Shown one piece after another: positions 11,001 to 46,255 of a stretch of DNA of 64,000 nt. How positions within the stretch are numbered: position 1 is the stretch's first letter; every line of letters begins with the position of its first letter. The DNA is from a virus (Duplodnaviria > Caudoviricetes): the IMG/VR virus record IMGVR_UViG_3300032221_000294, positions 35,521-99,520 of that record; one strand, written 5' to 3'. Under the pieces are notes generated by a model. It was not told where the DNA came from. It did no database searches and was given only the letters and a program-made list of their open reading frames with translations. The position numbers were made by a program, and so were the translations under genes.

Positions 11001-11883
11001 GCCTACTCGAATAGAAAATAGCTTCTCCCGTGGGAGTGGACTCGATTCTCGTAATGTCTCGAGAATCAACTTTATCCAATATGGAAAAATTGTTCAGGTA
11101 TGTGTTTCCGGTCCACTTGAGAATCGAAGTGATCGGCTGATTAAAGTCCTGATCAACGCCTGACGGATAGGCAGGGTTCTTGTAGTTGGGGACGTATGTC
11201 GGGCTTATAATGCACTTCTTCAGGTCGAGACCAACGATCGAAATTCCACGGGGGACGATAATCCCGCCAGTGGGGCTATTGAACTGAGTCAGCTGCGTGG
11301 TCGTTACTTGATCGTAGGGAGACGTAGAGAAGTTGACGTTAAAATCGGCAACAGTTTTACCGGGGCCATTGTTCGCGGTAACACGGGAAGGGGCGAAGTA
11401 AATTGTATATTTGCTGTTCTCGCTCGCAGGGTTTGACCCTGCCAGAATCGCATTGATGGTAATCTTACTTAGCTCCAGAATCGCCCGTGTCAAGGTTTGA
11501 AACGGTAGGGCCTGACCATCATTTAGAGTAGAGTCAGTGGACCCGGGAAATTCAGGTGCCACGAACACCACGTAACCGCCGCCGCCAAGATATGGGGCCG
11601 CAATTGTTTGCCACTGAGATGCCGAATTTTTGAATACACCTGCGTTAAGAGTTCCATCTTGAGTGTTCAGCCAGAGTTCACCTTTAGCCGGCGTGTTCGT
11701 TGGAGGACTTGGCAAGACTGATGTCGGGCCTACTTTTACAACTGTATCATTATTAACTTCGAAGAAAAGGCCCGGATCGTTCGAGTTCGTATTCAGGCCA
11801 ATCTCACCAACCTCAAGGTTCGAGCTCGTCGGGCGTTTTCCCGGAATGCTCGAACGCTTGAAAATAATTTTTACAGCAGACAT
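8071..11883 (-). CDS. Large tail fibre/spike-like structural protein
   Basis: 1270 aa; N-terminal KRSSIPGKRP...GEIGLNTN..PGLFF (shared with 5303..7519); PFQTLTRA, PRGISIVGLDLKK and SNFG beta-helix motifs. Confidence 0.75.
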   Translation of the reverse strand: MSAVKIIFKRSSIPGKRPTSSNLEVGEIGLNTNSNDPGLFFEVNNDTVVKVGPTSVLPSPPTNTPAKGELWLNTQDGTLNAGVFKNSASQWQTIAAPYLGGGGYVVFVAPEFPGSTDSTLNDGQALPFQTLTRAILELSKITINAILAGSNPASENSKYTIYFAPSRVTANNGPGKTVADFNVNFSTSPYDQVTTTQLTQFNSPTGGIIVPRGISIVGLDLKKCIISPTYVPNYKNPAYPSGVDQDFNQPITSILKWTGNTYLNNFSILDKVDSRDITRIESTPTGEAIFYSSRPHGLEVEDRVTVTFSSRVNQTTGTFRDGNYYAYPIDTFSFYLQTAPGSIFIEYSAIPIVTSTVSTILTVENQLRSAHRLRGSLNATVGELSDYYTKVQRAFPDFFGGQVTNGAALVSQAEYVIVAPTDTPYPNNLGVNTTKNSSAYANSVNLRSNFGMCWGEIIGSQLEGFRSLIANECTSVSLQTDPAAYEIYTTILNPVTNVSEQKWWSLARATLLSLPLDERPGSIDSVPVEAQLDLLNKTKIKNIRFYYQNLVTDSNENIGIVNIEEDFRHFGFRVRDGAYAQLQSIYTIGCAVGVWALNGGYVSLTNSTSNFGSVAIKSEGFTGINRVGGADANQTGFLFEGIQRPLALTQSQATSNENKQILSLGARITAVELDPLDPGIQLIELSSEFSPCYILPYSLEPGSAVWVANPSTGLTYRGFFATDGGPTVISTPGSCGLTSTLRIRSSDSTIPLSALTEELEVPYLRRFYDPRQEFDRVYSFKVSNTYPTVIPPQLGSVLRLNQINQAINPGTLRPNVQFDPGVLGGWGRIFTVDRVFTAGLAESPQYNYVIGDSNENVNYYFTATVSDYSRPWTQEFNNSTGSYVTYQQRNWYAAENNFWGNLYYGEATSFRPSAGPYKVAPVESCSPFVDTSVLERQDLVSNTYQGTFANDVYLEGEIYSEGDTYFRGSTYPYTSYSIQSYFNGDDGSDSMGICLTNVPTTATTTTLGGISIVQTPLDADDLRRYRPAIIEFSVANVSVINDPTEEVSIILLSDEFNYEYLQVVEITGSVVRAIRLNRLNSYYPDPSTEVKNWPSATLLTVCETNRVPNADAYDPLWGNTKQAVLRFFEVMGYSNEEILPYLGPKYWGERALSVTSLPFAPSQGYALVTERWPLEFNTPSTIIANTHTWAFTGYLDYSRGLPKYQNNDLSRKLSADFQSTVLWGGRVTVTGVNSRGEIVLFGPQRQALTGRFYTDPNPEINVGNQQLSNP

Positions 11884-11931
11884 TTGCTAAGGAGCGAGTT
11901 GTGACGCGTAACGACGCTTCTACCTTTTACC

Positions 11932-12093
11932 CTAAAGGTAGGCTCCGCCGATAATCGCGTCTTCGCTCACTTCACCCTTCTCTCGCAGCTTCATGGCCGC
12001 TTCAAGATACAGGTCTGCCTTTTCGCCCAGCTCCTGCCTGCGCTCCTTGTAACGTGACATCAGAGCGATGTACTTCTCGTCGTGTTTACTCAT
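11932..12093 (-). CDS. 53-aa protein coupled to the kinase gene (candidate inhibitor/immunity protein)
   Basis: Manual translation MSKHDEKYIALMSRYKERRQELGEKADLYLEAAMKLREKGEVSEDAIIGGAYL*; ATG overlaps the kinase TGA (TGATG). Confidence 0.7.
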   Translation of the reverse strand: MSKHDEKYIALMSRYKERRQELGEKADLYLEAAMKLREKGEVSEDAIIGGAYL

Positions 12094-13982
12094 CAAACCC
12101 CCTCGTAAAGAATCGAGATGTACTTTTGAGCCTGTTCATTAGTTAGTTTAGTCCAGACCCCCTGCTCGTAAGTCTCCATTGGCGAACGAATTCCGTGATC
12201 CATCACCGTGGCAATGTCGTCTTTGGAGAAACCATCCCGAAGCATCGCGAATTGAACGTCAGCTTTGTTTTGTTGAACTCTGGCGAGAACGGGAGCTTTT
12301 TCTTCGAGGTCTTTTCGTGCCCTTTCTGTTGACACGGGTAGAGCACCAGATTTCAATCTTGACTCGTAAATTTCGAGGAGTCGGCCAGCCGTCCCATCCC
12401 ATCGACGAAGTTGCCAGTCTCCTTGTCCCGCAGCACCCATACCTCTTGTTGCCGAACCACCTTGTGGAGGCATAAACACACCCATCGCTTCGGCCAAAGC
12501 GGCTTTTGGCGAGTCTTGAGCAAGACCCATGTCAACGAAACGGGCTTTACCTTTGCGGTCTACAAGAACGTTGTCGATGTGCATATCATTGTGAGCGATG
12601 CCCATCCGGTGAAGTTTTGCCCTAGCAACCCAATATGCGTCGGCAACTTTGACTCCGCCGATTTCTTTGTCGGGTGCTTTTGAACCGATAGGGCTTCCTG
12701 CAACCACGCTCATCGCCACGCGACCAATTTTCGTACCGGCGTTATACTGCGAGTCACCGTCAAGTTGAGCAGCAAGAAGTTTTGGCCCAAGGTCAACTTT
12801 TCCAAGACGGTCAATCAAGTCGGCTTCAATTTTACCGACTTCGCCCCTCTTGATGGCGTTTCCTTTGTTTGGCTCACGAAGAACGGTCCCGTAAGCACCT
12901 CTTCCGAGAAGTTTTGACCCCGACCCATAGGAATCTTCCCAGCGGTAAGACTTGCTTCCGAGCTCACGGGAAATCCCTTTGTTTATCATGTCACCGTCAT
13001 GATCGCGAGCGTCTTCACGAGCGTAACGAACGTTTCCAGTTGCTTTTGTTTGTGGGCCTTTAATCGCCTCTTCCACAACTTTGAGCCGATCAACCAGCTT
13101 GTTGCGAAGCGCACCCGGTTTTACCTTTTGAACTTGCGATTTTAAGTTATTCCGCAAATTCCAGGCTTCTCCGAGAAGTCCCTCTAAGTCACGTCCAACT
13201 TCCCTACGAGTTAGAGCACCAAGTCCGAGAACGGATTGAAGCTGTGCGACTTGTGATTTGATTTTGACTCGCCCACTATTGTCGTCAATCATCGAGATAT
13301 ATCTCGGCGATTCGCCCTTCAAGAGGCGTGAAATATCATCCATTAAATCCTCGTCGGCCACTGTTCTCTTTACGGGGAGAACCGTCCTTGTTCTTGCGCC
13401 TGGTGACTTATCAAGTTGCCGTGGTGGCAGAACTAACAAAGGCTTCTCGCTCGGGGTTTCTTTTCTGCGAGCTAACTCTCGGTCAATTCTATCTTTGGTA
13501 TCCTGTAACACCTCCTTTTTCCCTGCCGGTGCTACTGAGAGACCTTTTCGGAATTTAACAAGAGCACTCGTATCCCATGCTCCGTACAGCTCGTCGGGTT
13601 GATTTTTTGCGTCGACAGTGGGTTTTTCAAAGGCTCGTTTAAATACATCCCCTAAGTTTGTTTCCGCCTTCGGTGCAGCGGCACCCCTTGCCGGTATAAC
13701 ACCAGCAGCAACTAAACGTCGTTTCAGTTCCCGTGCATCCTCGCCTGCGCGAATGTTCCTGCCAAGTTCCTGACGAAATTCCTTCTTGATTTTTTCAAAT
13801 TGGGCGGCGCCACCGCGCTTTCCGCCCGCAGCAGCGGCTCGGTAGAGTTCAACAACCCCCACCTCATCTGAGGCTTTATTGAGAATGTTATTTACAGCTG
13901 TAGGGAAGTTAAGTCGGCAAGATTTTGCATTGCTGATGCAACCAGCCCCACACGCTTTACTGCGGCTGCACCTTTTTCTCAC
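12093..13982 (-). CDS. Ser/Thr protein kinase with N-terminal Cys4 module and basic linker
   Basis: LGRGAYGTV (Gly loop), AIK, HNDMHIDNVLV (catalytic loop), FVDMG (DFG equivalent); N-terminal RCSRSKACGAGCISNAKSC. Confidence 0.85.
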   Translation of the reverse strand: MRKRCSRSKACGAGCISNAKSCRLNFPTAVNNILNKASDEVGVVELYRAAAAGGKRGGAAQFEKIKKEFRQELGRNIRAGEDARELKRRLVAAGVIPARGAAAPKAETNLGDVFKRAFEKPTVDAKNQPDELYGAWDTSALVKFRKGLSVAPAGKKEVLQDTKDRIDRELARRKETPSEKPLLVLPPRQLDKSPGARTRTVLPVKRTVADEDLMDDISRLLKGESPRYISMIDDNSGRVKIKSQVAQLQSVLGLGALTRREVGRDLEGLLGEAWNLRNNLKSQVQKVKPGALRNKLVDRLKVVEEAIKGPQTKATGNVRYAREDARDHDGDMINKGISRELGSKSYRWEDSYGSGSKLLGRGAYGTVLREPNKGNAIKRGEVGKIEADLIDRLGKVDLGPKLLAAQLDGDSQYNAGTKIGRVAMSVVAGSPIGSKAPDKEIGGVKVADAYWVARAKLHRMGIAHNDMHIDNVLVDRKGKARFVDMGLAQDSPKAALAEAMGVFMPPQGGSATRGMGAAGQGDWQLRRWDGTAGRLLEIYESRLKSGALPVSTERARKDLEEKAPVLARVQQNKADVQFAMLRDGFSKDDIATVMDHGIRSPMETYEQGVWTKLTNEQAQKYISILYEGV

Positions 13983-14491
13983 TTTGCGCTCTCCCGGTAC
14001 TCTTGAAGTTTGGCTTCGAGCTCAGCGATACGGGATCCGACGGACTGAATATGCTCGGAATAGGAATCATCCTGGTTCATAGTCCGATTGTAATCATCCA
14101 TTTGCTTACGGCCAAGATCAAGAGTGGAAAGCTTCGCGTCGAGAGCTTCTTTCGCTTTAATCAGGTCGTGCATTTGCTTCATCTGGGCTTGCAGACCTTT
14201 GAAATTTCCACGCATACGGGAGGTGCGCATCTCGTCTTGAAGCGAGTCAATGCGCATATCAAGCGATTTCTCTTGCTCAGCAAGGCTATCGTATTCCCCA
14301 CCGTCACGAACGTTTTCGGGGAGAATCTCGCCAAAGCGAGAGTTGATCACAGACGTGTTCTCGGGCTCCATAACGGTTCCCCGAGCGTAATCTGTCGGTG
14401 TGTGGGAGTAATCAAGGATCTGATGCCCCCGCTCCGAATAAATTAAATAGGCTTGTTCGATAGCCTTTTCTGAAATGGAGTCTTTCCGCAT
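13979..14491 (-). CDS. Coiled-coil protein, putative internal head protein
   Basis: Heptad-rich; DYAR/SYSE/EYRE motifs; GGGTAAAA upstream. Confidence 0.6.
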   Translation of the reverse strand: MRKDSISEKAIEQAYLIYSERGHQILDYSHTPTDYARGTVMEPENTSVINSRFGEILPENVRDGGEYDSLAEQEKSLDMRIDSLQDEMRTSRMRGNFKGLQAQMKQMHDLIKAKEALDAKLSTLDLGRKQMDDYNRTMNQDDSYSEHIQSVGSRIAELEAKLQEYRESAK

Positions 14492-14522
14492 GTCGAAAAG
14501 GAGACTTATACGTGATTTTACC

Positions 14523-15029
14523 CTATCTTGTGCCCTCTAGGGTCTTGCGGCCGATCTCGTTGATGGCCTGTTGCCGAGCCGAGCCGCTGGCATTTGGATT
14601 CGCTAAGGCCGCTGCTGATTGAGCAGGGGCTGCTGGTTGAACGTTTTTCGGTCGTGGCGATTGACTTGGTTTTACGGGTTTTGGACCCACTTTCTTTTCA
14701 CCGGCGACTGAACCCCATTCAACAAGAACGGGTTTGCCACCTTTTACGGCCCAACCCATCCGCTTGCCGTTCACCATTACGGGTTTGTTGCTCTTAACGT
14801 CCGAGCCCTGCTTCTTGGCTTCAGCTTCACCCGCTTCCTCTTGTTTGGTTTTCTTGCTGGAGTCGAAGTCCTTTTCACCGGTGCCGCCGCCAACTTTGCG
14901 GCAGACGCCGAATACCATCTTCTCGCCTTCTCCACAGCCTTGGCCGTCAGCGAAGTTCCAGTCGATAATTGTGTAGTGAACACCTTCAATGAGGTGGTCA
15001 ACTGAGGGAAAATTGAAATTGCTTTGCAT
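14523..15029 (-). CDS. Putative internal head protein
   Basis: Likely start MQSNFNF; NFAD followed by CGEGEKMVFGVCRK; basic remainder. Confidence 0.55.
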   Translation of the reverse strand: MQSNFNFPSVDHLIEGVHYTIIDWNFADGQGCGEGEKMVFGVCRKVGGGTGEKDFDSSKKTKQEEAGEAEAKKQGSDVKSNKPVMVNGKRMGWAVKGGKPVLVEWGSVAGEKKVGPKPVKPSQSPRPKNVQPAAPAQSAAALANPNASGSARQQAINEIGRKTLEGTR

Positions 15030-15034
15030 GGGGA

Positions 15035-15346
15035 TCACCACTTAACTTTGTTGGCCCAGTAGGAACCAGAGGAAGGACCTTTCGCGATGTTTTTTGCGTG
15101 CCGCGCTTTGAAAGCTTCGCGTCGCGCCTTGTAAGACTCCGACTCACCTTCTTTTTTCGGGGACCCTTTGACGCCAGCTTGACCGAAACGAATCAATTTT
15201 TCCTGACCGTCGTAACACGCTTTGACAACGTGGCTGTGTCCGCCTTGTGTGTCCGCCTGAGGCTTGTTACAAGCCAAGTCTGCCTTTTCGGCGTAGTCTC
15301 TACGAAACCGCTCAAGAACTCCCTCAAAGAAAGACCCCCACATCAA
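15035..15346 (-). CDS. Small basic phage protein (DUF6321-like), putative internal head protein
   Basis: KLIRFGQ.G...RR.AFKARH...YWANKVKW pattern, recalled from phage head-associated proteins. Confidence 0.55.
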   Translation of the reverse strand: MMWGSFFEGVLERFRRDYAEKADLACNKPQADTQGGHSHVVKACYDGQEKLIRFGQAGVKGSPKKEGESESYKARREAFKARHAKNIAKGPSSGSYWANKVKW

Positions 15347-15900
15347 CCTTCCTCCCCGAAGCGAATGAAATCACCGACGCTTGCCAGGGCGACTCCAGCG
15401 TTTGCAATCTTTGTAGCAGCCCACGGAGGCAGATTGTCTTCTTCGTCGAGCATATCGAGCATTATTTCGATCTTTTCTTGCGCAACACGAAGTTGGGTGA
15501 TGATCATCCCGCCATTATTTTCACTGGACTGAAAAATTTCTGAGTAGGAGTTGTCGTTCGCTGAAGCATGCATCGCAAGTTGACCGTTTTTGTTAGCTGC
15601 CCTTTTAATGACTTCCATGCGGGGCATCCGAATCGGAACTCCTTCGTTCATCTGTGGGTTCTTTTCGTCACCTTCGCCTGGCTCTTCGGGCAGAAAGTTC
15701 GGTGTCATTTCTGCTGTGGCGATGTCACCTTCCCCATGTTTTGACTCGAGAGGAACGCAGTTTGGAACTGTTCGTCCGCCTTTCTTCTTCACGCCGACGG
15801 CGTGGTAGCCCTTCCAGCAGGCTTTCTTCAAGCACTCACGAGAATCTTCGGAGAACCCGAAACCTTCGAGTCTCTCCCAATCGTAGTTGTTAGGGTTCAT
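15343..15900 (-). CDS. Two-module putative internal head protein
   Basis: GFSE then CWKGY..VG.KKKGGRTVPNCVP; SYSE then GM..TQL...LDMLDEEDNLPPW..TKI, modules recalled from T4-like cyanophage head proteins. Confidence 0.55.
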   Translation of the reverse strand: MNPNNYDWERLEGFGFSEDSRECLKKACWKGYHAVGVKKKGGRTVPNCVPLESKHGEGDIATAEMTPNFLPEEPGEGDEKNPQMNEGVPIRMPRMEVIKRAANKNGQLAMHASANDNSYSEIFQSSENNGGMIITQLRVAQEKIEIMLDMLDEEDNLPPWAATKIANAGVALASVGDFIRFGEEG

Positions 15901-16162
15901 GATCTGTGATCCTCCGGTGTAGTAGATCTTTCTGAATGTCTTCGACCTTTTCCGACAACCGAATATGATCTTCCCGAAGAGTGTACTTGATTGGCAGGTC
16001 CGTTCTCAGGTTATCGAGAACCGACTCCATCTTCTCCATATGGCGGATAATAGTTCCAAAACGGTCGTCGATTCGCTTTCCATTTCGTTCAAGAACCCAG
16101 CCAATTCCGCTAACGGAGGTGACAATAGACGCTAGAATACTTAAGATAGCTACGGGTTCCAT
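15890..16162 (-). CDS. Single-TM coiled-coil membrane protein (holin-like?)
   Basis: Hydrophobic N-terminus MEPVAILSILASIVTSVSGIGWVL followed by coiled coil. Confidence 0.5.
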   Translation of the reverse strand: MEPVAILSILASIVTSVSGIGWVLERNGKRIDDRFGTIIRHMEKMESVLDNLRTDLPIKYTLREDHIRLSEKVEDIQKDLLHRRITDHEP

Positions 16163-16163
16163 A

Positions 16164-16871
16164 CTACTCCGGCAAACCTGATTGACCTGAAGCAAGCCGA
16201 TCTTTCACGGATTGCGGTAAGCCCGACTCCCAGCCGTTCTTCTTCGCGATGCGAATGATGCTAGCCATAATTTTGCGAGGATTTTTTCCTCGCCCTACCG
16301 AAGACCAGGCGGCAGCAACGTCTTCCGGGCTCGAGATTGGAAAAGACATATCAGGGCCGGCAAATTCACCCTTGACTGCCCCGGCTTTGAGCTCTTCGCG
16401 CTTTCCGGTGCTCCACTCGCGGTACTCGGCTGCTTTGCGTTTCTTGTCACGGCAAACTGGGCAAGATCCTCCGCATTCGCATTCGGCCATTGCGAAAGGT
16501 TGCGCAATTGCGAGAAGCTCGGTGTCCTGAGAATCGCCCTCGGCGAACCCGTACTCGGCCCTTTTCATTTCCTTAAACGAAGCCATCCGAGATTTCTTGC
16601 GGTCGAAAATCTCTTTCATGGCCTTATTGCCATCGCAATTTTCGTTGTAATTTCGGTTGACGAGACTAGTACGCTTTTCGCGATTTGCAGCGTTCAACTT
16701 TAGAACACTTTCGTTGTGGTGAGACATTCCACCGGTAATGTCGGGAGACCATTTCTTACCGGAGGCGTTCATTTCTTTCAACCTGTCTACGCTAATTGCG
16801 TTCGAGGCGTTGATGTTACCGCCTACACCAGGAAGCGAAACGTCGGAGAAATCTAGACGGGATCCGTACAT
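16164..16871 (-). CDS. Putative internal head protein (C-terminal DUF6582-like domain)
   Basis: DFSD, GFAE and EYRE motifs; CECGGSCPVC; FAGPDMSFPI.SPEDV.AAW..VGR domain. Confidence 0.55.
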   Translation of the reverse strand: MYGSRLDFSDVSLPGVGGNINASNAISVDRLKEMNASGKKWSPDITGGMSHHNESVLKLNAANREKRTSLVNRNYNENCDGNKAMKEIFDRKKSRMASFKEMKRAEYGFAEGDSQDTELLAIAQPFAMAECECGGSCPVCRDKKRKAAEYREWSTGKREELKAGAVKGEFAGPDMSFPISSPEDVAAAWSSVGRGKNPRKIMASIIRIAKKNGWESGLPQSVKDRLASGQSGLPE

Positions 16872-16908
16872 ATAGGAGGCAGTGGCAATACTTTCCTTTT
16901 ACCCTTTA

Positions 16909-17226
16909 TTAGGGACTCTCCGATTCGTTGGTGGTTTTGCGACGACGAGTTACTTGCTCGACCTCTGCACCGGCAGCAGGTTCTGCGGGAACTAAAAGGG
17001 CCAGCAGGGTAGTTAATGCCAGTTTGCCAGTTTCGGCGAAGCTTGAGTTCGCCTGAGCGCAAACTAAGTTTGTTTTCTCCAGTTCGGCTGGGCTGCTTGA
17101 AAGTTTGAAACAGGTGGCAAACTGTGCGCCAGTGGACGCGAATTGAACTATGAAGATAGCAACGAGGCTTCGAATCAGAAAGCGGCGCTCGTTGAAGCTA
17201 CTCGTAGTCTTCGTCAGCAGGCTCAT
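16909..17226 (-). CDS. Small two-TM membrane protein
   Basis: Two hydrophobic segments and a basic C-terminal tail. Confidence 0.55.
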   Translation of the reverse strand: MSLLTKTTSSFNERRFLIRSLVAIFIVQFASTGAQFATCFKLSSSPAELEKTNLVCAQANSSFAETGKLALTTLLALLVPAEPAAGAEVEQVTRRRKTTNESESP

Positions 17227-17560
17227 TGTCCTCTTCCATTGAGAGTTCGCTTAGAATTTCATTGACAAGGGCGTCAACCTCGTCTTCAGTTAGTTCCTCT
17301 TCCTCGTCGGACTCTTCCTCCTCGTAGTAGGATTCCGGTTGGAAGGGTTGCTTCAGATCGTCATCGGGACCTTTTCCGCTCGGATAGCGCCAAAGGCCAG
17401 TATGCTCGATCCAAGGGGAAGTGTTTGAGATTTCGCCAGCAGGGAGACCGGTTCGGGTGTCCATATCCTGGTCTTCCGGAGTCATCAGTTGAGCGGCATA
17501 CGCAGCGCGGAATGCTTCAACGGCGTCCATGTCGAAATCGCCACCAATTCTGTTGGTCAT
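17198..17560 (-). CDS. Acidic hypothetical protein
   Basis: GGDFDMDAVEAFRAAYA leader-like N-terminus; Glu-rich C-terminus; GGGTAAAA upstream. Confidence 0.6.
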   Translation of the reverse strand: MTNRIGGDFDMDAVEAFRAAYAAQLMTPEDQDMDTRTGLPAGEISNTSPWIEHTGLWRYPSGKGPDDDLKQPFQPESYYEEEESDEEEELTEDEVDALVNEILSELSMEEDNEPADEDYE

Positions 17561-17598
17561 TTGTTAGTTGTAATGGAACTTGAAGAAATTTTACCCGC

Positions 17599-18321
17599 TC
17601 AGGCCGCCCCGAAAAACCGGTAATTCCCCTCGTCGTCCTCGTAAATAGATCCCTCGTAAGCGTCTGTCCCCCTAGTAATTGCCTCGACGTCTTTGTCGGT
17701 CCACCCCAACACTTTCTTCAGAACTTTTTTTGGTACCGTAGCTGCAAGATCATCGTAGGAGGCGTTTTTGTCAACGTATTTCTGTAATTTCGGGTGCTCC
17801 ATAACCCTTTCGATGGCCTCGTCAACTCTTGATGGTAATCCAGCCTTGGCGAATTCGCCGAGTGCTTCTTGCTTTCTCTTCTTTCCCGTATCCTTGGTCA
17901 CACCCCCTGGCCCGTAAGTGTTATTTTTATGCCCGTATAGACTTGACTTGTACGCGTCAGCTTCTCTGCGTCTTTCCCTTTCACCGGGCGTCATATTCCC
18001 CCTGGTATCGCCCTTCTTATAAGGTTCACGCGCACGACCAGCAGCGTTCGCTGCGAGTTGGTCATACATGGCTTTTCTTTCAGGTGTTTGATTCTTTTTC
18101 TGACGTGCCAGTTTCGCTGCTCTTTCCGCTACTTTGGCTGCTGCGCCTTTGGTGGATTCTACACCTTTGCGGCATTGCCCTCCCGTGCCGTAGATAGACC
18201 CGTCGGGTCGCATACATCGGGTGAAGTCGTAGCTCTCTCCCTCGGAGAAATCCGCAGATTGTGTTTGTGAAACCATCTCCGAATACTGGAGGAGAGCCTT
18301 TTCTGAGAAAGAACCTAGCAT
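17599..18321 (-). CDS. Putative internal head protein, paralog A
   Basis: GSFSE..L..YSE...QTQSADFSEG..YDFTRC.RPDGS.YGTGG.CRKG.E leader shared with 19140..19835. Confidence 0.7.
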   Translation of the reverse strand: MLGSFSEKALLQYSEMVSQTQSADFSEGESYDFTRCMRPDGSIYGTGGQCRKGVESTKGAAAKVAERAAKLARQKKNQTPERKAMYDQLAANAAGRAREPYKKGDTRGNMTPGERERRREADAYKSSLYGHKNNTYGPGGVTKDTGKKRKQEALGEFAKAGLPSRVDEAIERVMEHPKLQKYVDKNASYDDLAATVPKKVLKKVLGWTDKDVEAITRGTDAYEGSIYEDDEGNYRFFGAA

Positions 18322-18352
18322 GATACTAAAGTAATCTGCTCAAGTTTTACCC

Positions 18353-18799
18353 TTAGCGTTTCTTGATCTTGCCCGAGATATCTTGCCCCATCTTGCTATT
18401 GCCCATGAGCTTTTCTTCGTACTCTTTAACTTCCTTTTTGACATCTGCCTTGAGTTTACCTTCCTGAAGCATTTTTTCCTTCTTAGACTCAAGGATTTCA
18501 GGGTCGTAGGGGGCATTCTTCTCTCGCTCTTTCTTCGCCTTTTCCTTGCCCTTCTGCATTGTTTTCGCAGTTTGCTCACGCTTGGCAAGTTCTTCTTTGT
18601 GAACGAGTTTCCCTTCTTCGTCAAACTTGTGGTCTTTTGGAAGCTCGGGGGGAGTGTACTCTTGGTGAATTTCCTGCGCCAGGCGATCAAGAAGTTGGTC
18701 GTACGAGTCACGCAGGCGCCGTCTGCAAACGCCGGCAGCAGCCACAGTCATCGGGCCACAGGGAATCCTGTGCTGAGTAATTTCTTCGAGTGCGTTCAT
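18353..18799 (-). CDS. Lys/Glu-rich protein, putative internal head protein
   Basis: Likely start MNALEE; CGPMTVAAAGVCRR motif. Confidence 0.55.
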   Translation of the reverse strand: MNALEEITQHRIPCGPMTVAAAGVCRRRLRDSYDQLLDRLAQEIHQEYTPPELPKDHKFDEEGKLVHKEELAKREQTAKTMQKGKEKAKKEREKNAPYDPEILESKKEKMLQEGKLKADVKKEVKEYEEKLMGNSKMGQDISGKIKKR

Positions 18800-18800
18800 G

Positions 18801-19136
18801 TTAGGCTCCTTTTCTTTGGCGAATGCGACCGTCGTTGTGCTCGTCGTAGTGAACTCCCTTCCTCTTTTCCTTGCGGGGGTTTGAGTCCTGACGATTTGTT
18901 TCCCGCATCGACTGAACCATTGTGTCGCGCATGTTGCGAAGTTGCTCACGCGGCAGAGTGCAATGATCGCTGTCACGATAGGAACGATACCAGCGGCAAA
19001 CTTCCGACGGGTCGTCAGCCTGGAGCATCATATTCCACACCCCGAGTGCTTGCGCATCGGCTAGGGTGCCAGGCTTGAGTTTGGCCTCAATTTCGTGCCG
19101 CTCGGGGCGATTGAATCGGGTGTCTTTGCGCATCAC
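18801..19136 (-). CDS. Hypothetical protein
   Basis: 111-aa ORF tiling the cluster. Confidence 0.6.
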   Translation of the reverse strand: MMRKDTRFNRPERHEIEAKLKPGTLADAQALGVWNMMLQADDPSEVCRWYRSYRDSDHCTLPREQLRNMRDTMVQSMRETNRQDSNPRKEKRKGVHYDEHNDGRIRQRKGA

Positions 19137-19139
19137 TGA

Positions 19140-19835
19140 TCAGAGTTTTCCTATTTGCCATTTAATACCGACGTCACTAGTCCACGGATGCACGACTGTA
19201 TATCCGTCTTTGGTTTTCTTTACTTGAAAATTATCGCCTCCTTGCTTCTTATTAAGAGCGTTAGCAAGCTCTTGAGCTTTGTTTTTGGGGAAAATTAAAG
19301 AATCGGACGAACGCTCTGACGAAGTTCCTTTTGAACTCTTCTGTCCCTTACCCGCAAGCTGAGCCAGAGCATTTTTAGCATAGCGGGAAAAGGAACCTTT
19401 GGCCCCATCTTCTTGATAACGATCTGAAGCATTATCGAGAGCACTAACGAGTTTTTGTTTTTGTTCGGGGTTTAATTTTAGGCCCAGTGCTTTTTCTAAC
19501 TTGGGTGCGAGTGTCTCCCCGGCATACCCAGGGGTGGAATCTGACTCTCCGTCCTCAAAGGCCATAAACGCTTTGTCCCAAGCCTTATACAAACCATCTA
19601 CGATTTTGGCAGCATCTTTCTTTGGTCCACCCGACGCTCTCTTCGCTTTTTCTTCAATTTCTTTAGCGCCTTCCGTGCCCTTTCGGCATTTACCCCCAGT
19701 GCCATACGCCGACCCGTCGGGTCTCACGCAACGGGTGAAGTCGTAGGTATATCCTTCAGAGAAATCCGCAGCTTGAGTCTGAGCCGCAAGTTCTGCGAAG
19801 TGACGCAAAGCGTCTTCAGAAAAATGACCGTTCAT
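19140..19835 (-). CDS. Putative internal head protein, paralog B
   Basis: Start MNGHFSE, 22 nt after GGGTAAAA; same leader as 17599..18321 with an unrelated C-terminus. Confidence 0.7.
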   Translation of the reverse strand: MNGHFSEDALRHFAELAAQTQAADFSEGYTYDFTRCVRPDGSAYGTGGKCRKGTEGAKEIEEKAKRASGGPKKDAAKIVDGLYKAWDKAFMAFEDGESDSTPGYAGETLAPKLEKALGLKLNPEQKQKLVSALDNASDRYQEDGAKGSFSRYAKNALAQLAGKGQKSSKGTSSERSSDSLIFPKNKAQELANALNKKQGGDNFQVKKTKDGYTVVHPWTSDVGIKWQIGKL

Positions 19836-19872
19836 GGCTGTAAAATAATATACAAGTTTTACCCCCTTGGTG

Positions 19873-21720
19873 TTACAAATCTGCGATTTGTTGAAGTACC
19901 TCGTCTTGAATGTCTTTGATCTTCGGCGCAAGGAAATCAATTAACCCTGTCCTCGTTGAATACTGCGTTTCTCGAACTCTATTTCCTTTGTATTTTTCTT
20001 CGTTTAAGTCGAGAAGTTTCCTCTGAGCCCCGCTCAAAATTGAGCCCATCTTCATCAAACCCCCGTTATCTCCCTTTTCCTGGAGCTCAGCGACTTTATC
20101 CGCTAGAGCTTTACCGACGGACGCGCCTCCTACATCTTTTCCGTACCAGTACAGAGGTTTGGGCACAGAACGTAAACTCCCCTCCTTGGCTGACTGGATT
20201 CCAATAGCAACGGTTCGTGACGAATCTGTCCACGCGGAGACAACTTTACCCATTAGATTTGCCCGGTCTCCCGCGTTAAGCTCATTAGTGGGGATAAGGG
20301 CAATAGACGCTAACGCTTTTTGAGGATCTAGAATCTTGTCTAAGATGTCATCCCCGATTGTTTTCTTTGCTGAGTTTATTTCTTCCCGTTTTTCGTGGAA
20401 AAGTTTACCGTCTTCCGTGAGTTTTCCGTTTCCGTCAAAAGTTATCATCCGTGGCTTACCCGAGGTCTTTGAGGTGTTGGTGTTGAACCAACCTGCGGTG
20501 TTAGTTGTTAGCAGGTAATCCGGACTGCCTTCCCCTTTCCCTCGGTTTATTCGAGAGTTTGTTAACGACCAGTTGTTCCCGATATTGGCATTTGCACCTG
20601 CGACCCCCGCTGGTATCAAGTGCTCTAAGTCCACGCTCAACAAATTCAGTTTCTCCCCCGTGTATACGTCCTTGAATCCTGACTCCATAGCGATCTTCAT
20701 AATTAAGAAAGATTTTGCCTTATCCTCCTCTGCTTTTGACATCTTCTTCCCCGAGGGAATTACGTCTCCCTTCGGAGTTACAGATCTGTAGGATCCAGGA
20801 ATTTCTGAACTTCCCGCACTCTTCAGATAGGTGAAAACTTGGGGGGGCATCAGACCCATCATAAAATGGACCTCTGAGTCTTTGACGTCCTGATTTCTGT
20901 ACCATTTTGCGAAAGGTTCTAGTGCCTTGGAAAATTCTTCAGGGTTCTTATATTTACCTGTCTTATAGTTGTCATAGACACTCGTAAGTTCTTTAAATTT
21001 GTCTTGACGCTCTTTCGAGGCCATTCGTTCTATGCCCTCGTTAGAAACAACTGGGGCTACATCTTTCCTCCCGTATAAGACGTCAAAAGCCTGACTCACC
21101 ATGTCCCGCATTTTTTGCCTGCGCTCTTTAGGGTCGGGGTAATCTTTGGTTAAGCCGTTGATCCCCTCCCGAAGAAAAGAAGTCCTTTCTTTCAACTCAG
21201 TTTGAACTTTCCCCGTTCTAAATTCTTTTGGCAGGGTGTCTTCCGCCAGTTTTCCTTTCACAAGCGAGTTAGAGAAACCTGTGTATTGTTTAAATCGTTT
21301 TGCGGCTTCAGCGGTGGTCAAGTTTCCTTGAGCAATTTCTGATTTCAAGTAATTTCGTACTTTAGTGACTTCTCCTGAAATTTCTGCAGGTAACTGCAGG
21401 ATGCAGTCGTTGCGGTAGAAAATGCAGGAAGCCCCACAAGATTTACCTTTCTTACACCGGTCACGTTTTGCGGAGAAGCTTTTTCTTTGAGCTGCCGCAT
21501 TCATTGCGCTCTCTTTCTTCGCTTCTGTGATCACTTTCTTTCCCCCGTCAGACGTCTTTTTAGGGGACCCACCTGTTTGAGGGGAAGCCGCTGGTTTACC
21601 GGGCAGAGGTGAAGATTCACCTACAATCCCTTGTCTTTGCCCAAGGCGCTCTACTTTTGCATCATCCCCTTGCATATTGCGGGAGTCTGCAAAATCAAAC
21701 CAGCGATACTTACTTCCCAT
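19873..21720 (-). CDS. Large basic protein with Cys4 module and HNH nuclease domain
   Basis: RCKKGKSCGASCIFYRNDC; DVYTG...DLEHLIP...NNWSLTNSRINRGKG (HNH). Confidence 0.7.
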   Translation of the reverse strand: MGSKYRWFDFADSRNMQGDDAKVERLGQRQGIVGESSPLPGKPAASPQTGGSPKKTSDGGKKVITEAKKESAMNAAAQRKSFSAKRDRCKKGKSCGASCIFYRNDCILQLPAEISGEVTKVRNYLKSEIAQGNLTTAEAAKRFKQYTGFSNSLVKGKLAEDTLPKEFRTGKVQTELKERTSFLREGINGLTKDYPDPKERRQKMRDMVSQAFDVLYGRKDVAPVVSNEGIERMASKERQDKFKELTSVYDNYKTGKYKNPEEFSKALEPFAKWYRNQDVKDSEVHFMMGLMPPQVFTYLKSAGSSEIPGSYRSVTPKGDVIPSGKKMSKAEEDKAKSFLIMKIAMESGFKDVYTGEKLNLLSVDLEHLIPAGVAGANANIGNNWSLTNSRINRGKGEGSPDYLLTTNTAGWFNTNTSKTSGKPRMITFDGNGKLTEDGKLFHEKREEINSAKKTIGDDILDKILDPQKALASIALIPTNELNAGDRANLMGKVVSAWTDSSRTVAIGIQSAKEGSLRSVPKPLYWYGKDVGGASVGKALADKVAELQEKGDNGGLMKMGSILSGAQRKLLDLNEEKYKGNRVRETQYSTRTGLIDFLAPKIKDIQDEVLQQIADL

Positions 21721-21725
21721 TGCAG

Positions 21726-22547
21726 TTAATCTTCGTAGCGGTCGAGTATGTGAGCGATGACGGAGTTGCGAACGATGTCCTCTTTCGAGAACTCTACGAT
21801 ACCAACTTCCGTCAGGTGACGCAGCCGATGAATAGCATCAACCAGGCCATTCTCCCTCCGGAAAACTTCCATATCGGTCTGTTTCGTGTCTCCAATCAGA
21901 AGGATCTTCGAATCTTTGCCGACACGGGTTAGAACCGTTTTGATTTGTGAAGGGAGGAAGTTTTGAGACTCATCCACAATGATGAAAGCCTCGTTAAGCG
22001 ACCGTCCTCGAATATCTTCCAGGAGGACAGGCTCGATAATTTTCTTGTTCAGTAGGTACTCACTTGCGCCATGGGACTTCATGATGCAGGGCAAGTTGTC
22101 AAGAACAGGCGCAATCAGGGGTGCGATCTTCTCGGAAAGGTCTCCAGGCAGCGCTCCGCGCCCGCGCTGGAATTCAACACCTACGTCACTTCGAACGTAG
22201 TACACCTTATCAAAATCACCAGAGGCGACACCAAACAATCCGTAGTGCAACGCAATCAGCGTCTTTCCGGTCCCGGCACACCCATGTGCGAGAGTAACAG
22301 TGTTTTTCTTAAGGGTGTTCCACAGGTCTTCTTGCCGCCAAGTCAGAAACTTGGGAGGCATGACATCCATACCTTTCGAGTAGGAATGCTCTAACATCTG
22401 GGCATTTTCGGAACGGCGAGCCTTGCGCTTTGTCTTTGAGTCTAACATGTTTAAGGGAGTGGGACAGTCGGTGGGTAGTTCATACACTTTGCTGCTTAAT
22501 AGGATTACATCCTTATCACCCCCTTCAGAACTAGTGGGACGAGTCAT
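21726..22547 (-). CDS. phoH: PhoH-like ATPase
   Basis: GCAGTGKT Walker A, GALPGDLSEKIAP, IRGRSL, DESQN, LTRVG, GDTKQTD, DIVRN; start 22547 or 22448. Confidence 0.92.
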   Translation of the reverse strand: MTRPTSSEGGDKDVILLSSKVYELPTDCPTPLNMLDSKTKRKARRSENAQMLEHSYSKGMDVMPPKFLTWRQEDLWNTLKKNTVTLAHGCAGTGKTLIALHYGLFGVASGDFDKVYYVRSDVGVEFQRGRGALPGDLSEKIAPLIAPVLDNLPCIMKSHGASEYLLNKKIIEPVLLEDIRGRSLNEAFIIVDESQNFLPSQIKTVLTRVGKDSKILLIGDTKQTDMEVFRRENGLVDAIHRLRHLTEVGIVEFSKEDIVRNSVIAHILDRYED

Positions 22548-42626: not shown

Positions 42627-43106
42627 TCAGGCGAAGCTGACAAGAGCGAACTTGCGACCGCCGATTCCGATTTGCTCGCGAATCAGAGGAGTGGTGCCGT
42701 CCAGGGTGACGGGGGTGCCGTCGCCAACGCCAACAGCTTGACCCAGATCGTTAATTTCGAGTTGGGTGTTGAGGGTCAGATCGGTTAGAGTTGCAGCAGG
42801 AGCAACTTCAACCAACAGAAGACCGGAAGTAGCAACGGTCAGCTGACGAGCGGTGTAAGGCTGAGCCAGAGCGGTAGGCATATAAGCCTGGTTGATACCA
42901 ACGATGGTGTCTACGCCGCCGGGGGTAGTGAAAGCATCTGGGGCAGCAGCGAAGTTAGGGCCAGCCCAGGTAGCGTAAGAAACGGCGCGGAATTCGCCGA
43001 TTTCAACAACACCGGGATCGCCATCTTGATTGTCAGCAGGAGCTTCGAAAGTTTCTGCGTAACGGATGTACTGGCGGCCATATACGGGACCTGCGTTTGT
43101 AGCCAT
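42627..43106 (-). CDS. Capsid cement/decoration protein (DUF2190-like)
   Basis: TVATSGLLLVE...INDLGQAV; lies between the scaffold module and the capsid gene. Confidence 0.65.
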   Translation of the reverse strand: MATNAGPVYGRQYIRYAETFEAPADNQDGDPGVVEIGEFRAVSYATWAGPNFAAAPDAFTTPGGVDTIVGINQAYMPTALAQPYTARQLTVATSGLLLVEVAPAATLTDLTLNTQLEINDLGQAVGVGDGTPVTLDGTTPLIREQIGIGGRKFALVSFA

Positions 43107-43855: not shown

Positions 43856-46255
43856 TCAGTTGTACATTGTGCGCTTGATAGCTTCGACGTAGTCAATCCC
43901 TTCGGACTCGACCATCTTCAGAGCTTTTGCGTGAGGATCCAGATCTTCCTCGGCAAACTGGAAGGTTCCGCCAGCGATCTCACCGTAGGAAACCATCGAA
44001 GGAAGCTTGCTCAGAAGGCCAAGCAGTTTCGTGGCAGCCGTTTCACCCTCGGAGAACTCCAGGGTTCCGAAGTCAAGACCTTCGCAGTAGCTTTGAAGCT
44101 CGGACTGAGGCATAATGCCGTCGGTCAGGCGACCATCTTCGTAGATAGACTCAACGAACGAGGCGATTTTCGCTTTGCGAGCGTTCATCTTCTCTTCAGC
44201 GAAGCGGCGCTGGAGTTCGGAATGCTCTTTCTTCAGGCGATCCAGCTCCTCGAAGATGGCGGAGGGGAAACCGTCTGGCTTGGCTTGGGCCATTGAACCC
44301 ATGCCGTAGTCCATACCGCAGTGGTCAGAGGAAAGCTCGTTGAAGTCTTCCTCCTCGTCACCTTCACCGTCTTCGTCGTAAGTTGAACCGAACCCAGTTT
44401 TGGTGTAAGGGTTCTTCTTCTCGCCGTGCTCTTCAGCGAACACACCTCCTGAACGCTTCGTCTTCTGGTTAGGGCCACCGTCAAAGTCGCCGCTCAGATT
44501 GTCCTCGGCGAATGCACCGTCGGGACCAACAACTTGGGCAGCCTCGTCGATTTCATCCATCGCACCGGGAGTAAGTTGCTTCTTAGAAGATTTCTTCTCA
44601 CCTTCGCAATCCTCAGAGAACACACCGCCGGGTCCGGTGATTTCAGCCACACCGCCTTCGAAATGACCGGGTTCCAGTTGACCTTTCTTGACTTTGGCTT
44701 TGCCTTGCGTCAGGTCGTCCACTTCGCCCATGGCAGTTACGCCCAGCTCAGAAGTTGTCTCATCCGCTTCAGGCTCAGCGTAGTTGATCTTACCGCCCTT
44801 GGTGGCTTGACGTCCGGTGCTGCTTGTCTGACGCATTACGCGCATACTTCCGTCTGACATAACGTTGATGGTGTTCACGGCGAACACTTCGTTGTCAGGA
44901 GATTCTTCAGTTTCGGTGGGAATCTTGGTGTCAGCATCTGCGCGGCCAGCAGGGTTTGAACCGGAGGCAGTCTTAGGCTGATTGGGCTCAGGGTAGCTGT
45001 CAGCGTCGGTGTCGTATTGATCACCGTTCATGGTGCGATCTTCACCATCAGCTTGACCCGCCCAGCGAGATTCACCAGTTGCGTTATCTGAACCGTCTTT
45101 GGCAGTTTTCTTCCGGTCGGAATCTTGCTCAGAGTTCTTAGAAGAGCTGACGCGATCGGCCTCCTGCTCTCCACTCTTGGCGGTGTTCATGCGGTCGTCG
45201 CCAACGCCGCTTTTGCCTTCTTTACCGGTCTTCATGCGGTCGGCGTAACCGTTGTCAGACGAACGAGCTGTGTCATAGCGACCAGTCTCGTCATAATTCA
45301 TTTCGTCGCCTTCTTCCATTTCGACCTTTTCGCCAGGGTTAGCCTTGGCTTTGGCCTTCATTTCTTCGGCTTTCTTTCTGAGTGCCGGGGGCAGCTCTTT
45401 GTGTTGTTCGTCGTAGACATTTTCTACAACTTGAACTACTTGGCCGTGGGCACCTTTGGCGTGCTTACGGCTGATTTTTCCGTCTTCCATAAATTGTTCC
45501 TCTGGGAATTGGTCTTCAAGTTCAGCCGTCTGCTGAGTGATTTCGTTGGTTTTGATGCCAGGCTTGGTTTGTTTTCTGCCTTCGGTGAATTGTTGGTTTT
45601 CCCCGGAGTTGGCTTTTTCAGCTGGAGCTTCTGCACCAGCCGCTTGATCCACGTTGGTATCCTGTTGAGTGTCGCTTGCTTCTTGAAGATCTTTGACAGC
45701 GGATGAAACATCTTGTCGAACTTCTTCAAGTTTTTCGCGGAGAATCTCAAGGGGGCTCTTTTCAACGATCAAGGTTGGCCCAAGTTCGTCGTCAAAGATT
45801 TGATCCGGGGACAAAGTTACAGCGAAGTCAAAACACCCTTCCGCCTCATTAAATGAGAAAGGTTCGAGTCCTTTAACCGCAGGTGGTGATGCCCCCAACA
45901 AGGCCAGGTGCCTTGCGCTCCATTTCCCCCCGTGCGGGTTGATTTGGCTGTCCGGAGAATAGAAGGAAATCGATACTTTCCTGTAGTGACCATTCTTGAC
46001 TAACTCTTTTGCTGTGTCTGAAAAGGAGACATCAGCATAAAGGTTTTGTCCTTCTCTTGAAAATCCTTGGATCCACCCGAAAGAAGGCAAACTGTCGTTA
46101 TCCCCCTGGTGGCCAAGAACTATAGGAGCTTCATGGATCGAGGGGTCGTATGTGTCGACAACTTGTTGAAGATCGTCTGGAGAGAATGTCCGCTTAATTC
46201 CTTGAGCAGAGGTTTGATCACCCGCACGAAATACGTGAATTCTTTTAGTGAACAC
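43856..46255 (-). CDS. Mu gpI-like prohead protease fused to a long scaffold
   Basis: IHVFRAG, HEAPIVLGH, GWI, YRKVSISFY, HLALLGASPPAVKGL; acidic linker; C-terminal DYVEAIK. Confidence 0.88.
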   Translation of the reverse strand: MFTKRIHVFRAGDQTSAQGIKRTFSPDDLQQVVDTYDPSIHEAPIVLGHQGDNDSLPSFGWIQGFSREGQNLYADVSFSDTAKELVKNGHYRKVSISFYSPDSQINPHGGKWSARHLALLGASPPAVKGLEPFSFNEAEGCFDFAVTLSPDQIFDDELGPTLIVEKSPLEILREKLEEVRQDVSSAVKDLQEASDTQQDTNVDQAAGAEAPAEKANSGENQQFTEGRKQTKPGIKTNEITQQTAELEDQFPEEQFMEDGKISRKHAKGAHGQVVQVVENVYDEQHKELPPALRKKAEEMKAKAKANPGEKVEMEEGDEMNYDETGRYDTARSSDNGYADRMKTGKEGKSGVGDDRMNTAKSGEQEADRVSSSKNSEQDSDRKKTAKDGSDNATGESRWAGQADGEDRTMNGDQYDTDADSYPEPNQPKTASGSNPAGRADADTKIPTETEESPDNEVFAVNTINVMSDGSMRVMRQTSSTGRQATKGGKINYAEPEADETTSELGVTAMGEVDDLTQGKAKVKKGQLEPGHFEGGVAEITGPGGVFSEDCEGEKKSSKKQLTPGAMDEIDEAAQVVGPDGAFAEDNLSGDFDGGPNQKTKRSGGVFAEEHGEKKNPYTKTGFGSTYDEDGEGDEEEDFNELSSDHCGMDYGMGSMAQAKPDGFPSAIFEELDRLKKEHSELQRRFAEEKMNARKAKIASFVESIYEDGRLTDGIMPQSELQSYCEGLDFGTLEFSEGETAATKLLGLLSKLPSMVSYGEIAGGTFQFAEEDLDPHAKALKMVESEGIDYVEAIKRTMYN

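Follow-up and report, generated by a model that had tools for sequence, protein, structure and literature searches.

The internal proteins of bacteriophage T4 are reportedly marked by a capsid targeting sequence (CTS; Mullaney and Black 1996), and head-linked MuF polymorphic toxins have reportedly been described by Jamet et al. (2017). T4 IPI-III and Alt are diverse, mostly basic proteins and enzymes, including an ADP-ribosyltransferase, which share the conserved N-terminal CTS, enter the scaffolding core, are cut after Glu by the prohead protease and are ejected with the DNA (PMC3012670). Head-internal proteins of SPN3US, phiKZ and 201phi2-1, some of them forming paralogous families, carry propeptides with several Glu-ending protease motifs, and the protease also cuts itself (PMC10052503, PMC7411985). 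The Dar proteins of phage P1, again including enzymes, are incorporated into the head during assembly in a hierarchy that depends on DarA and Hdf, and are ejected to act early (PMC9024508, PMC12810830). Here we describe a gene block in a 64,000-nucleotide stretch of IMG/VR virus record IMGVR_UViG_3300032221_000294 (positions 35,521 to 99,520, hereafter the window) in which unrelated proteins are headed by a small set of shared N-terminal modules, a leader and several Cys hairpins, collectively referred to as tags.

The tags are conserved, modular and nearly always N-terminal, and they stand in front of unrelated cargo. The window forms the final 64 kb of a 99.5-kb viral contig whose major capsid protein shares 67% identity with its counterpart in Synechococcus phage S-CBWM1, the only cultured relative of this uncultured cyanophage, and 39% with the one in S-TIM5. 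Its head module is Mu-type, combining a PF06074 portal with a PF10123 protease-scaffold fusion. Fifteen minus-strand open reading frames (ORFs), labelled A to O, lie between phoH (21726-22664) and the gene of a 1270-amino-acid (aa) tail fibre (8071-11883). An initial annotation of the sequence had placed about 14 genes of a candidate effector cluster here; the location stands, but not all of the genes are cargo: C and O lack a tag, and G and I resemble membrane proteins. The four Cys modules that it had listed, here named CysA, CysB, CysC and the C-W..G-Y..P-N-C-V hairpin, are all present as described. The genes are as follows.

A, 19873..21720, minus strand: 615-aa basic protein with W-F-D-F-A-D at residues 7-12, a low-complexity linker, CysA (Cys 89-116) and, around residues 365-395, a weak HNH-like motif.
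B, 19140..19835, minus strand: 231 aa; leader MNGHFSEDAL.., a second and a third F-[S/A]-E, the CysB hairpin C-x-R-P-D-G-S-x-Y-G-T-G-G-x-C-R-K-G and a unique basic C-terminus.
C, 18801..19136, minus strand: 111-aa basic protein, untagged, conserved in relatives and as S-CBWM1 gp107.
D, 18353..18799, minus strand: 148 aa; CysC hairpin P-C-G-P-x7-G-V-C-R-R-R-L close to the N-terminus, then a K/E-rich tail.
E, 17599..18321, minus strand: 240 aa; leader and CysB as in B (67% identity over residues 1-58), with a basic, unrelated C-terminus.
F, 17198..17560, minus strand: 120-aa acidic protein (isoelectric point, pI, 4.1) with the weaker leader-like start G-G-D-F-D-x-D-A-V-E-A-F-R-x-x-Y-A.
G, 16909..17226, minus strand: 105 aa with a hydrophobic segment; homologue of S-CBWM1 gp109.
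H, 16164..16871, minus strand: 235 aa; N-terminal M-Y-G-S-x-L-D-F-S and internal E-Y-G-F-[A/S]-E-G-D-S-Q-D near residue 109.
I, 15890..16195, minus strand: 101-aa membrane-anchored coiled-coil protein (phrog_462).
J, 15343..15900, minus strand: 185 aa; G-L-G-F-x-E (residues 13-18) precedes the C-W-K-G-Y...P-N-C-V hairpin.
K, 15035..15343, minus strand: 102 aa; 18-residue leader (MWGSFFEGVLERFRRDYA-E) and a phrog_7595 core.
L, 14523..15029, minus strand: about 168 aa; start M-Q-S-N-F.., conserved D-W-N-F-A-D, CysC hairpin C-G-x7-G-V-C-R-K and a basic tail.
M, 13979..14491, minus strand: 170-aa acidic coiled-coil protein with two conserved sites, L-I-[Y/F]-[S/A/K]-E (around residue 18) and S-Y-[S/T/A]-E (around residue 144); its S-CBWM1 homologue, gp115, is shorter.
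N, 12093..13982, minus strand: 629-aa basic Ser/Thr-kinase-like protein with CysA at its extreme N-terminus.
O, 11932..12096, minus strand: 54 aa, untagged, translationally coupled to kinase N; its homologues are S-CBWM1 gp114 and the C-terminus of S-CREM2 gp13.

The gene order terL-phoH-A...N(kinase)-O-tail fibre is kept in S-CBWM1 as gp105-gp116 and in 25 IMG/VR relatives with an H gene of 57-92% identity. Positional homologues within gp106-gp115 exist for all cluster genes except B, E, J, K and L, while families B, E, L and the kinase are variably present across the relatives. By megablast the cluster had no match among isolate phages, and Pfam and PHROGs left the 15 proteins nearly blank, the only matches being to kinase (N), phrog_7595 (K), phrog_462 (I) and, for the C-W..G-Y motif of J, families of unknown function. 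Most tagged proteins are basic (pI 9-9.8). Similarity among the cluster proteins is restricted to the N-terminal modules and ends after them, two kinases excepted, in agreement with the annotated lack of relationship between the C-termini. G and I are probably membrane-like proteins rather than cargo.

The leader occupies the first 18-20 residues and, with the families aligned across relatives, has the consensus M-x-G-S-F-S-E-x-x-L-x-x-F-x-x-x-Y-A-E. It heads B, E and K, variant forms of L and J, and the product of an additional 101-aa gene present in one relative, with a weaker form on F. For a hidden Markov model (HMM) built from K only, the N-termini of E, B and F outrank every other non-self match in a set of 1,893 six-frame ORFs, with F at E 0.38, which tentatively places F in the leader family. 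The phrog_7595 core of K is leaderless in the head or late modules of other marine phages, namely roseophage SIO1, cyanophage KBS-S-2A, where it lies between head-morphogenesis and major head genes, and a Lentibacter podovirus, where it follows internal virion protein D; the leader thus looks like an add-on. An alternative start, found in A (W-F-D-F-A-D with CysA) and L (D-W-N-F-A-D with CysC), consists of a short N-terminal [F/Y]-[D/N]-F-[A/S] peptide, a variable low-complexity linker and a Cys module. Across relatives of A the [F/Y]-[D/N]-F-A peptide and CysA are conserved and the linker varies, and in relatives of L the linker is variable and Pro-rich. On S-CBWM1 the leader profile finds gp165 only, weakly, and on S-TIM5 it finds nothing.

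CysA is a module of about 50 residues with the fuller consensus T-x-S-x-I-x-x-A-K-x-x-A-V-G-G-K-R-K-R-C-x-K-G-K-S-C-S-A-T-C-I-x5-C-L-V-D-L-P. A 40-column profile searched against 1.84 billion proteins (E<=1e-3, counted as representative clusters) finds it in 622 clusters, nearly always inside the first ~100 residues, and a leader+CysB profile finds 721. The modular grammar of leader, Cys module and exchangeable cargo put forward in the initial annotation is real, as the cargo swaps behind both tags. Pfam domains on 102 CysA proteins comprise Pkinase (13), APH (8), ABC1 (6), ADP-ribosyltransferase (3) and HNH (2), and the top 120 leader+CysB proteins carry ADP-ribosyltransferase domains (10) and PF01467, cytidylyltransferase/NMNAT (6). 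A [D/N]-F-[A/S] peptide stands at the extreme N-terminus of 31 of the 59 proteins in which CysA begins at least 30 residues in, and of 2 of the 87 short forms. The AlphaFold model of the CysA region (predicted local distance difference test, pLDDT, 77) shows a helix, a cysteine-bearing beta-hairpin and two confident helices. Searched with Foldseek against PDB and BFVD it matched nothing at E<=1e-3, S-CBWM1 gp174 alone appearing, weakly; no Pfam family covers CysA, and for the leader+CysB part the ESM Atlas yielded no match that could be used. Two kinases in relatives retain two of the four CysA cysteines, so that obligatory zinc binding by all four is doubtful. The CysC module of D is kept in 22 relatives. 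The hairpin of J (C-W-K-G-Y...V-P-N-C-V, residues 19-63) is a mini-module with matches in six PHROG families of unknown function, where its position differs widely, and occurs in 270 isolate genomes, mainly T4-like cyanophages. S-RIM2 has it within a 456-aa protein encoded between the small terminase gene and a virion structural gene.

Of 50,697 isolate genomes, that of S-CBWM1 is the sole one with CysA; the profile does not detect it in S-TIM5 or S-CREM2. Of 20 longer CysA-bearing IMG/VR contigs, located by a degenerate DNA pattern, seven encode the Mu portal and a near-identical protease-scaffold, where ~6.5 would be expected given contig completeness if the pairing were universal. One CysA-bearing contig of 67 kb, 91% complete, has neither. 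A second tagged cluster lies on the same genome.

6715-10992 of the genome, outside the window: second tagged cluster, with a CysA kinase-like protein and a coupled 50-aa ORF, an endolysin, and three leader and/or CysB proteins.

The N-terminus of its endolysin (phrog_10051, Peptidase_C39_2) reads F-F-D-F-A-Q-F-A-D, and one of its leader/CysB proteins has the module internally, behind a DUF6496 domain.

A link to virions comes from the cultured relative. According to PMC10665884, citing Xu et al. 2018, purified S-CBWM1 virions contain APH, ChoK and Rio2 kinases and an NMNAT-like protein. The CysA profile finds exactly five S-CBWM1 proteins, gp106, gp113 (RIO-like), gp161 (ChoK-like), gp162 (APH-like) and gp174, and the CysB profile two, gp165 and gp39 (NMNAT). 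All four enzymes reported there from virions fall within these seven genes, an overlap with a chance of ~8e-7 by a rough estimate that assumes ~182 proteins. By homology and by this published account, tagged proteins of the cultured relative occur in virions. In gp113 and gp161 the annotated start falls within CysA (S-CBWM1 70398-70481 and 117824-117904), and both starts are probably mis-annotated because the open frames run upstream to M-S-K-R-C.. and M-G-K-N-C... Kinase N shares its N-terminal CysA with gp113, gp161 and gp162 and is the positional counterpart of gp113, the RIO-like kinase. It matches Pfam Pkinase at E 3.5e-5 (23.8 bits, under the gathering score of 31.7) and phrog_18305 'kinase' at E 2.7e-5, and by tblastn its residues 343-503 match annotated cyanophage kinases, S-CREM2 gp14 among them, at 29-33% identity. 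For A, gp106 is the homologue and gp174 a paralogue annotated as 'virion structural protein'; its HNH-like assignment is weaker, since A itself has no Pfam match, the homologue P0007 reaches 23.1 bits against a cut-off of 21.4, and the motif regions align weakly.

A second cyanophage supplies a parallel. In the T4-like S-CREM2, gp6 (SAM, S-adenosylmethionine, hydrolase), gp13 (a homologue of O), gp14 (kinase) and gp15, encoded within 3837-13331, start with T4-CTS-like peptides (MKDFDSFLEE, MKDLHSFLTE, VKRFDAFLTE), and all four are listed as virion proteins in PMC10665884. The relevant passages of that paper do not mention these starts and name no N-terminal tag. Judged from their N-termini, the same cargo classes appear to carry an address that fits the head type, T4-CTS-like in S-CREM2 and CysA or CysB in S-CBWM1. 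Within the earlier proposal of effectors loaded into a Mu-type head, virion association gains indirect but specific support from the tagged S-CBWM1 proteins; a cargo role for every gene of the block does not hold. We consider the tagged proteins to be probable virion cargo.

An alternative keeps the tagged kinases, nucleases and small basic proteins out of the particle altogether, as late effectors inside the producing cell that act in host shut-off, DNA handling or lysis timing, their shared N-termini being paralogous domains such as DNA- or metal-binding knuckles and the virion detections carry-over. The authors of PMC10665884 themselves raise, in the passages concerned, that abundant late proteins may contaminate virion preparations, the Lys/Arg-rich CysA could bind nucleic acid, membrane proteins (G and I) sit within the cluster, and the second tagged cluster adjoins an endolysin and small membrane-like ORFs, which could mean a lysis-related role. 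Carry-over does not readily account for the fact that all four non-structural enzymes reported from S-CBWM1 virions are tagged while gp173, an untagged PknB-like kinase, is not among the virion enzymes named there. T4-like cyanophages also give the same cargo classes T4-type capsid-targeting peptides, the tags are almost always N-terminal and joined to unrelated cargo, and the block keeps its conserved order between terminase and tail fibre. On this evidence a purely intracellular role is unlikely.

How the tags might be processed is suggested by an aromatic-[S/A]-[E/D] tripeptide, which the initial annotation had described near the N-terminus of most cluster proteins. Every instance that it listed is present, but 'most' amounts to 8 of 15. 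These eight carry the tripeptide within their first 30 residues, compared with 6 of 116 other proteins (Fisher p=8e-6), so the enrichment over other ORFs that it had suggested examining is borne out; three of those six belong to the second tagged cluster and one is a head protein. Over the whole cluster [FYW][SA][ED] occurs 16 times against 4.9 in within-protein shuffles (p about 3e-4). Candidate sites in H, M, J, L and A are conserved across the relatives with 57-92% identity, and the internal E-Y-G-F-[A/S]-E-G-D-S-Q-D of H is strictly conserved in 20 of them. The head genes referred to here and below are these.

43856..46255, minus strand: Mu-type prohead protease fused to a long scaffold (PF10123, phrog_976), with ten [F/Y]-[S/A]-E sites.
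42627..43106, minus strand: 159-aa head protein adjoining the major capsid gene, with a conserved N-proximal Y-I-R-[Y/F]-A-E-T.
46283-47680: Mu-type portal (PF06074, E 2e-70).

The recurrence of the tripeptide in the protease-scaffold, also noted at the outset, is confirmed with 10 copies against 1.64 expected (p<=2e-4), mainly in G-rich linkers and the C-terminal domain. The related S-CBWM1 gp170 has 5 against 1.2 expected and S-TIM5 gp151 6 against 1.3, and 120 homologues average 9.0 against 1.8. In an alignment of 13 scaffolds the persisting sites are G-P-D-G-[A/V]-F-[S/A]-E, G-G-V-F-[A/S]-E-E-H-G-E, G-T-L-E-F-S-E-G-E-T-A and F-Q-[F/Y]-[A/S]-E-E-D-L, the linkers around them duplicate and diverge, and a further site, N-Y-A-E, exchanges with D-H-A-E. 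Within the scaffold part, the P3 position before [S/A]-E is enriched in H (8x), F (6.7x) and Y (6.7x). Because the scaffold sites are not matched by the leader HMM, we limit any likeness between leader and scaffold to the tripeptide. The S-TIM5 counterpart of the 159-aa head protein, gp152, is annotated as a virion structural protein and reads Y-V-E-T.

The initial annotation had also assigned D-F-S-E to a MuF-like protein and supposed a separate, toxin-less MuF. The D-F-S-E is present in a 217-aa protein (43194-43847), but it is not kept as [S/A] in relatives, and the protein has no Pfam MuF match, its sole match being phrog_24776, of unknown function; we treat it as a head protein without an assignment. 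Pfam MuF has no match in the cluster either, and a MuF reading of 46283-47680 was rejected in favour of the portal.

We know of no cleavage site of any Mu-type (PF10123) prohead protease, nor did the literature searched yield an experimentally defined cleavage motif for one, so the role of the motif is inferred from enrichment alone. Its enrichment and conservation in the scaffolds of three lineages make trimming by the Mu-type protease at [F/Y/H]-[S/A]-E about as probable as its opposite. The tripeptides could instead be docking motifs for coat, portal or scaffold in virion proteins that retain their N-termini, the scaffold copies being interaction repeats. A docking role would suit the longer conserved context of the scaffold repeat G-P-D-G-[A/V]-F-[S/A]-E and the P1 residue that is not always acidic, since G or A frequently follows F-D-F-A in family A and in S-CBWM1 gp111 the D-F-S-D of H reads D-N-S-D. 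It fits less well with the Glu that follows aromatic-[S/A] in the scaffold at 5 times the expected frequency, or with a tripeptide that stays while the Gly-rich or acidic linkers duplicate and diverge. Multiple sites in scaffold and propeptides with Glu at P1 also match T4 and phiKZ-type proteolysis. We regard uncleaved docking as rather unlikely, if somewhat less so than a wholly intracellular role.

We propose that the block from phoH to the tail fibre is a late-expressed cassette whose tagged members, A (HNH-like), B, D, E, H, J, K, L, M, N (kinase) and probably F, would enter the virion, most likely the head interior, and be delivered with the DNA. Loading would be set by lineage-specific N-terminal address modules used in combination. 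The first part would be an amphipathic leader, M-x-G-x-F-[S/P]-[E/D]-x-x-L-x-x-F-x-x-x-Y-A, which is some 18 residues long, or the shorter [F/Y]-[D/N]-F-[A/S] with its variable linker; the second would be one small Cys-hairpin module, CysA, CysB, CysC or C-W..G-Y..P-N-C-V. Behind the tag the cargo would be exchangeable, with a kinase, an HNH-like nuclease and basic proteins here and ADP-ribosyltransferase and NMNAT-like enzymes in relatives. The tags may bind a component of the Mu-type procapsid ahead of DNA packaging, and the protease may cut after [F/Y/H]-[S/A]-Glu both to dismantle its own scaffold and to trim the leaders. The mature, mostly basic proteins would then exit together with the DNA, to act at an early stage in the next host. 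C, G, I and O, which lack tags, would be accessory, with O probably travelling bound to the kinase. Taken as a whole, this sequence of tagging, head loading, protease trimming and injection with the DNA is the account we favour, with marginally less assurance than the cargo assignment on its own.

Several observations weigh against it, in addition to possible carry-over, the endolysin neighbourhood and the inconstant P1 acid discussed above. S-TIM5 is reported in PMC10665884 to have virion kinases and yet has no CysA. Kinase N and three S-CBWM1 kinases have CysA and no leader, so the leader must be dispensable, and in some proteins (P0001 and a 297-aa paralogue) the module is internal, which a simple propeptide model does not predict. 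The major capsid protein lacks the tripeptide motif. A complex prediction pairing protease domain 1-180 with the leader+CysB part of B and E (1-62) scored 0.00 with the fold of the partner uncertain; this weak point is evidence neither way.

The wording of the initial annotation, which spoke of polymorphic effectors, invites comparison with a toxin-immunity system in which the tagged enzymes would serve as toxins passed between phages or cells, and small ORFs coupled to the kinases (O, and the 50-aa ORF following the second kinase) would supply immunity proteins that remain in the producer. Cargo domains do swap behind a constant N-terminus, a small translationally coupled ORF follows both kinases, and A diverges strongly among close relatives (identity of 22-42%, compared with 80-95% for PhoH). 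A neighbouring small ORF is, however, lacking for most tagged proteins, and no MuF, Rhs or other known toxin-trafficking domain is found in the cluster proteins. S-CREM2 gp13, the homologue of O, has its own T4-type capsid-targeting-like leader and is listed as a virion protein in PMC10665884, so co-packaging is a better fit for O than immunity. We find the toxin wording unwarranted and a toxin-immunity system highly improbable.

The cluster is subdivided by a short promoter-like element, GGGTAAAA. The five internal copies annotated initially were all found, with one more at the border.

11925-11932, minus strand: GGGTAAAA at the border of the cluster.
14516-14523, minus strand: GGGTAAAA inside the cluster.
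16897-16904, minus strand: GGGTAAAA inside the cluster.
17589-17596, minus strand: GGGTAAAA inside the cluster.
18345-18352, minus strand: GGGTAAAA inside the cluster.
19857-19864, minus strand: GGGTAAAA inside the cluster; the start of B was shifted to the ATG downstream of this copy.
47715-47722, 53107-53114, 43186-43193 and 7989-7996, minus strand: further copies of GGGTAAAA.

In the window GGGTAAAA occurs 21 times against 2.6 expected, a count reached in 0 of 100 shuffles, with all but one of the 21 copies on the minus strand. They lie 23-60 nucleotides upstream of the start codons of portal, protease, sheath, tail and cluster genes. Its placement makes GGGTAAAA a likely phage-specific promoter element, perhaps late, common to the structural genes. 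S-CBWM1 encodes a sigma-70-type factor of its own (gp152).

Other features of the window and its relatives stand apart from the cassette. Homing-endonuclease-like ORFs (HNH-like M-K-H-x-H-H.. and GIY-YIG-like) are inserted at differing points of the cluster in differing relatives (L029:8871-9536, L030:5029-5607, L036:9038-9850, L038:7764-8351, L047:9639-10337). Two genes are probably auxiliary metabolic genes, the first adjoining phoH on the opposite strand and the second lying within the tail genes.

23136-23819, plus strand: fatty-acid desaturase (PF00487, E 5e-9).
2793-3407, minus strand: 2-oxoglutarate (2OG)-Fe(II) oxygenase (PF13640).
48547-53049, minus strand: 1500-aa protein, similar to S-CBWM1 gp167, with a very long N-terminal extension ahead of ~430 final residues that match the tail-sheath families phrog_17610 and phrog_23.
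55491-58286, minus strand: DNA polymerase (phrog_22619, E 2e-229), flanked by structural gene blocks on the same strand.
1405-1581, minus strand: small ORF in the tail-fibre region ending in a run of ~15 glycines.

The recurrent kinases and NMNAT-like proteins of cyanophage virions lack an explanation for their entry. If CysA, CysB and the leader are loading signals, the pre-made proteins delivered by a widespread cyanophage clade could be read from genomes. The proposal would likewise provide the first proposed cleavage specificity for Mu-type prohead proteases and a compact tag for packaging foreign proteins into a non-T4 head. The same cargo classes under a different address in each head lineage would represent convergent evolution of virion cargo. 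A broader and more tentative possibility, which we hold with less confidence than either cargo loading or trimming, is that a large, mostly uncultured clade of cyanophages with Mu-type heads uses an undescribed combinatorial address code, in which a protease-removed aromatic-S/A-Glu leader and a Cys-hairpin dock (CysA/CysB) load interchangeable host-takeover enzymes for injection. Such a code would be a convergent counterpart of the T4 CTS, and the injected proteome of hundreds of uncultured phages would become predictable from sequence.

Our literature search found no description of these leader, CysA and CysB tags. The principle, which the initial annotation had taken to be undescribed, is nevertheless known from the T4 CTS (PMC3012670), and from SPN3US and phiKZ (PMC10052503), and virion-associated kinases of cyanophages have been published (PMC10665884). 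The likeness to T4 lies in a short conserved N-terminal address on diverse cargo. In sequence the addresses differ, the leader here being M-x-G-x-F-[S/P]-E-x-x-L rather than the M-K-x-Y-x-E-F-I-A-E-like CTS of ~10 residues ending in [L/I]-x-E; peptides of the latter kind occur in S-CREM2 and are not seen in this phage. The only head protease found is Mu-type (PF10123, phrog_976) rather than gp21, and the proposed P3 residue is aromatic or His where T4 has Leu or Ile. The Cys-hairpin module has no T4 counterpart, and the kinases here have this module and no leader. SPN3US, phiKZ and 201phi2-1 are set apart by lineage, protease family and motif, and no shared short leader or Cys module is described for them. 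Because leader, protease family and motif all differ, the cluster belongs with neither the T4-CTS nor the SPN3US/phiKZ systems. The Dar proteins of phage P1 have no sequence relation to the cluster, and no common N-terminal tag is described for them.

MuF toxins and the polyvalent proteins of Iyer et al. 2017 (PMC5512222) resemble the cassette in being head-linked, interchangeable effectors for the next host, with overlapping classes (kinase, ADP-ribosyltransferase, nuclease). Here, by contrast, there is no MuF (PF04233), portal or giant multi-domain carrier, and the cluster accordingly is neither a MuF toxin nor a polyvalent protein; each cargo is a separate small gene with its own tag, and the cluster proteins, of 54-629 aa, have at most one recognisable enzymatic domain each. 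The closest correspondence is with the virion kinases and NMNAT of S-CBWM1, S-CRM01, S-TIM5 and S-CREM2, as covered in PMC10665884. These represent the same cargo classes, and the S-CBWM1 enzymes detected in virions share CysA or CysB with the cluster.

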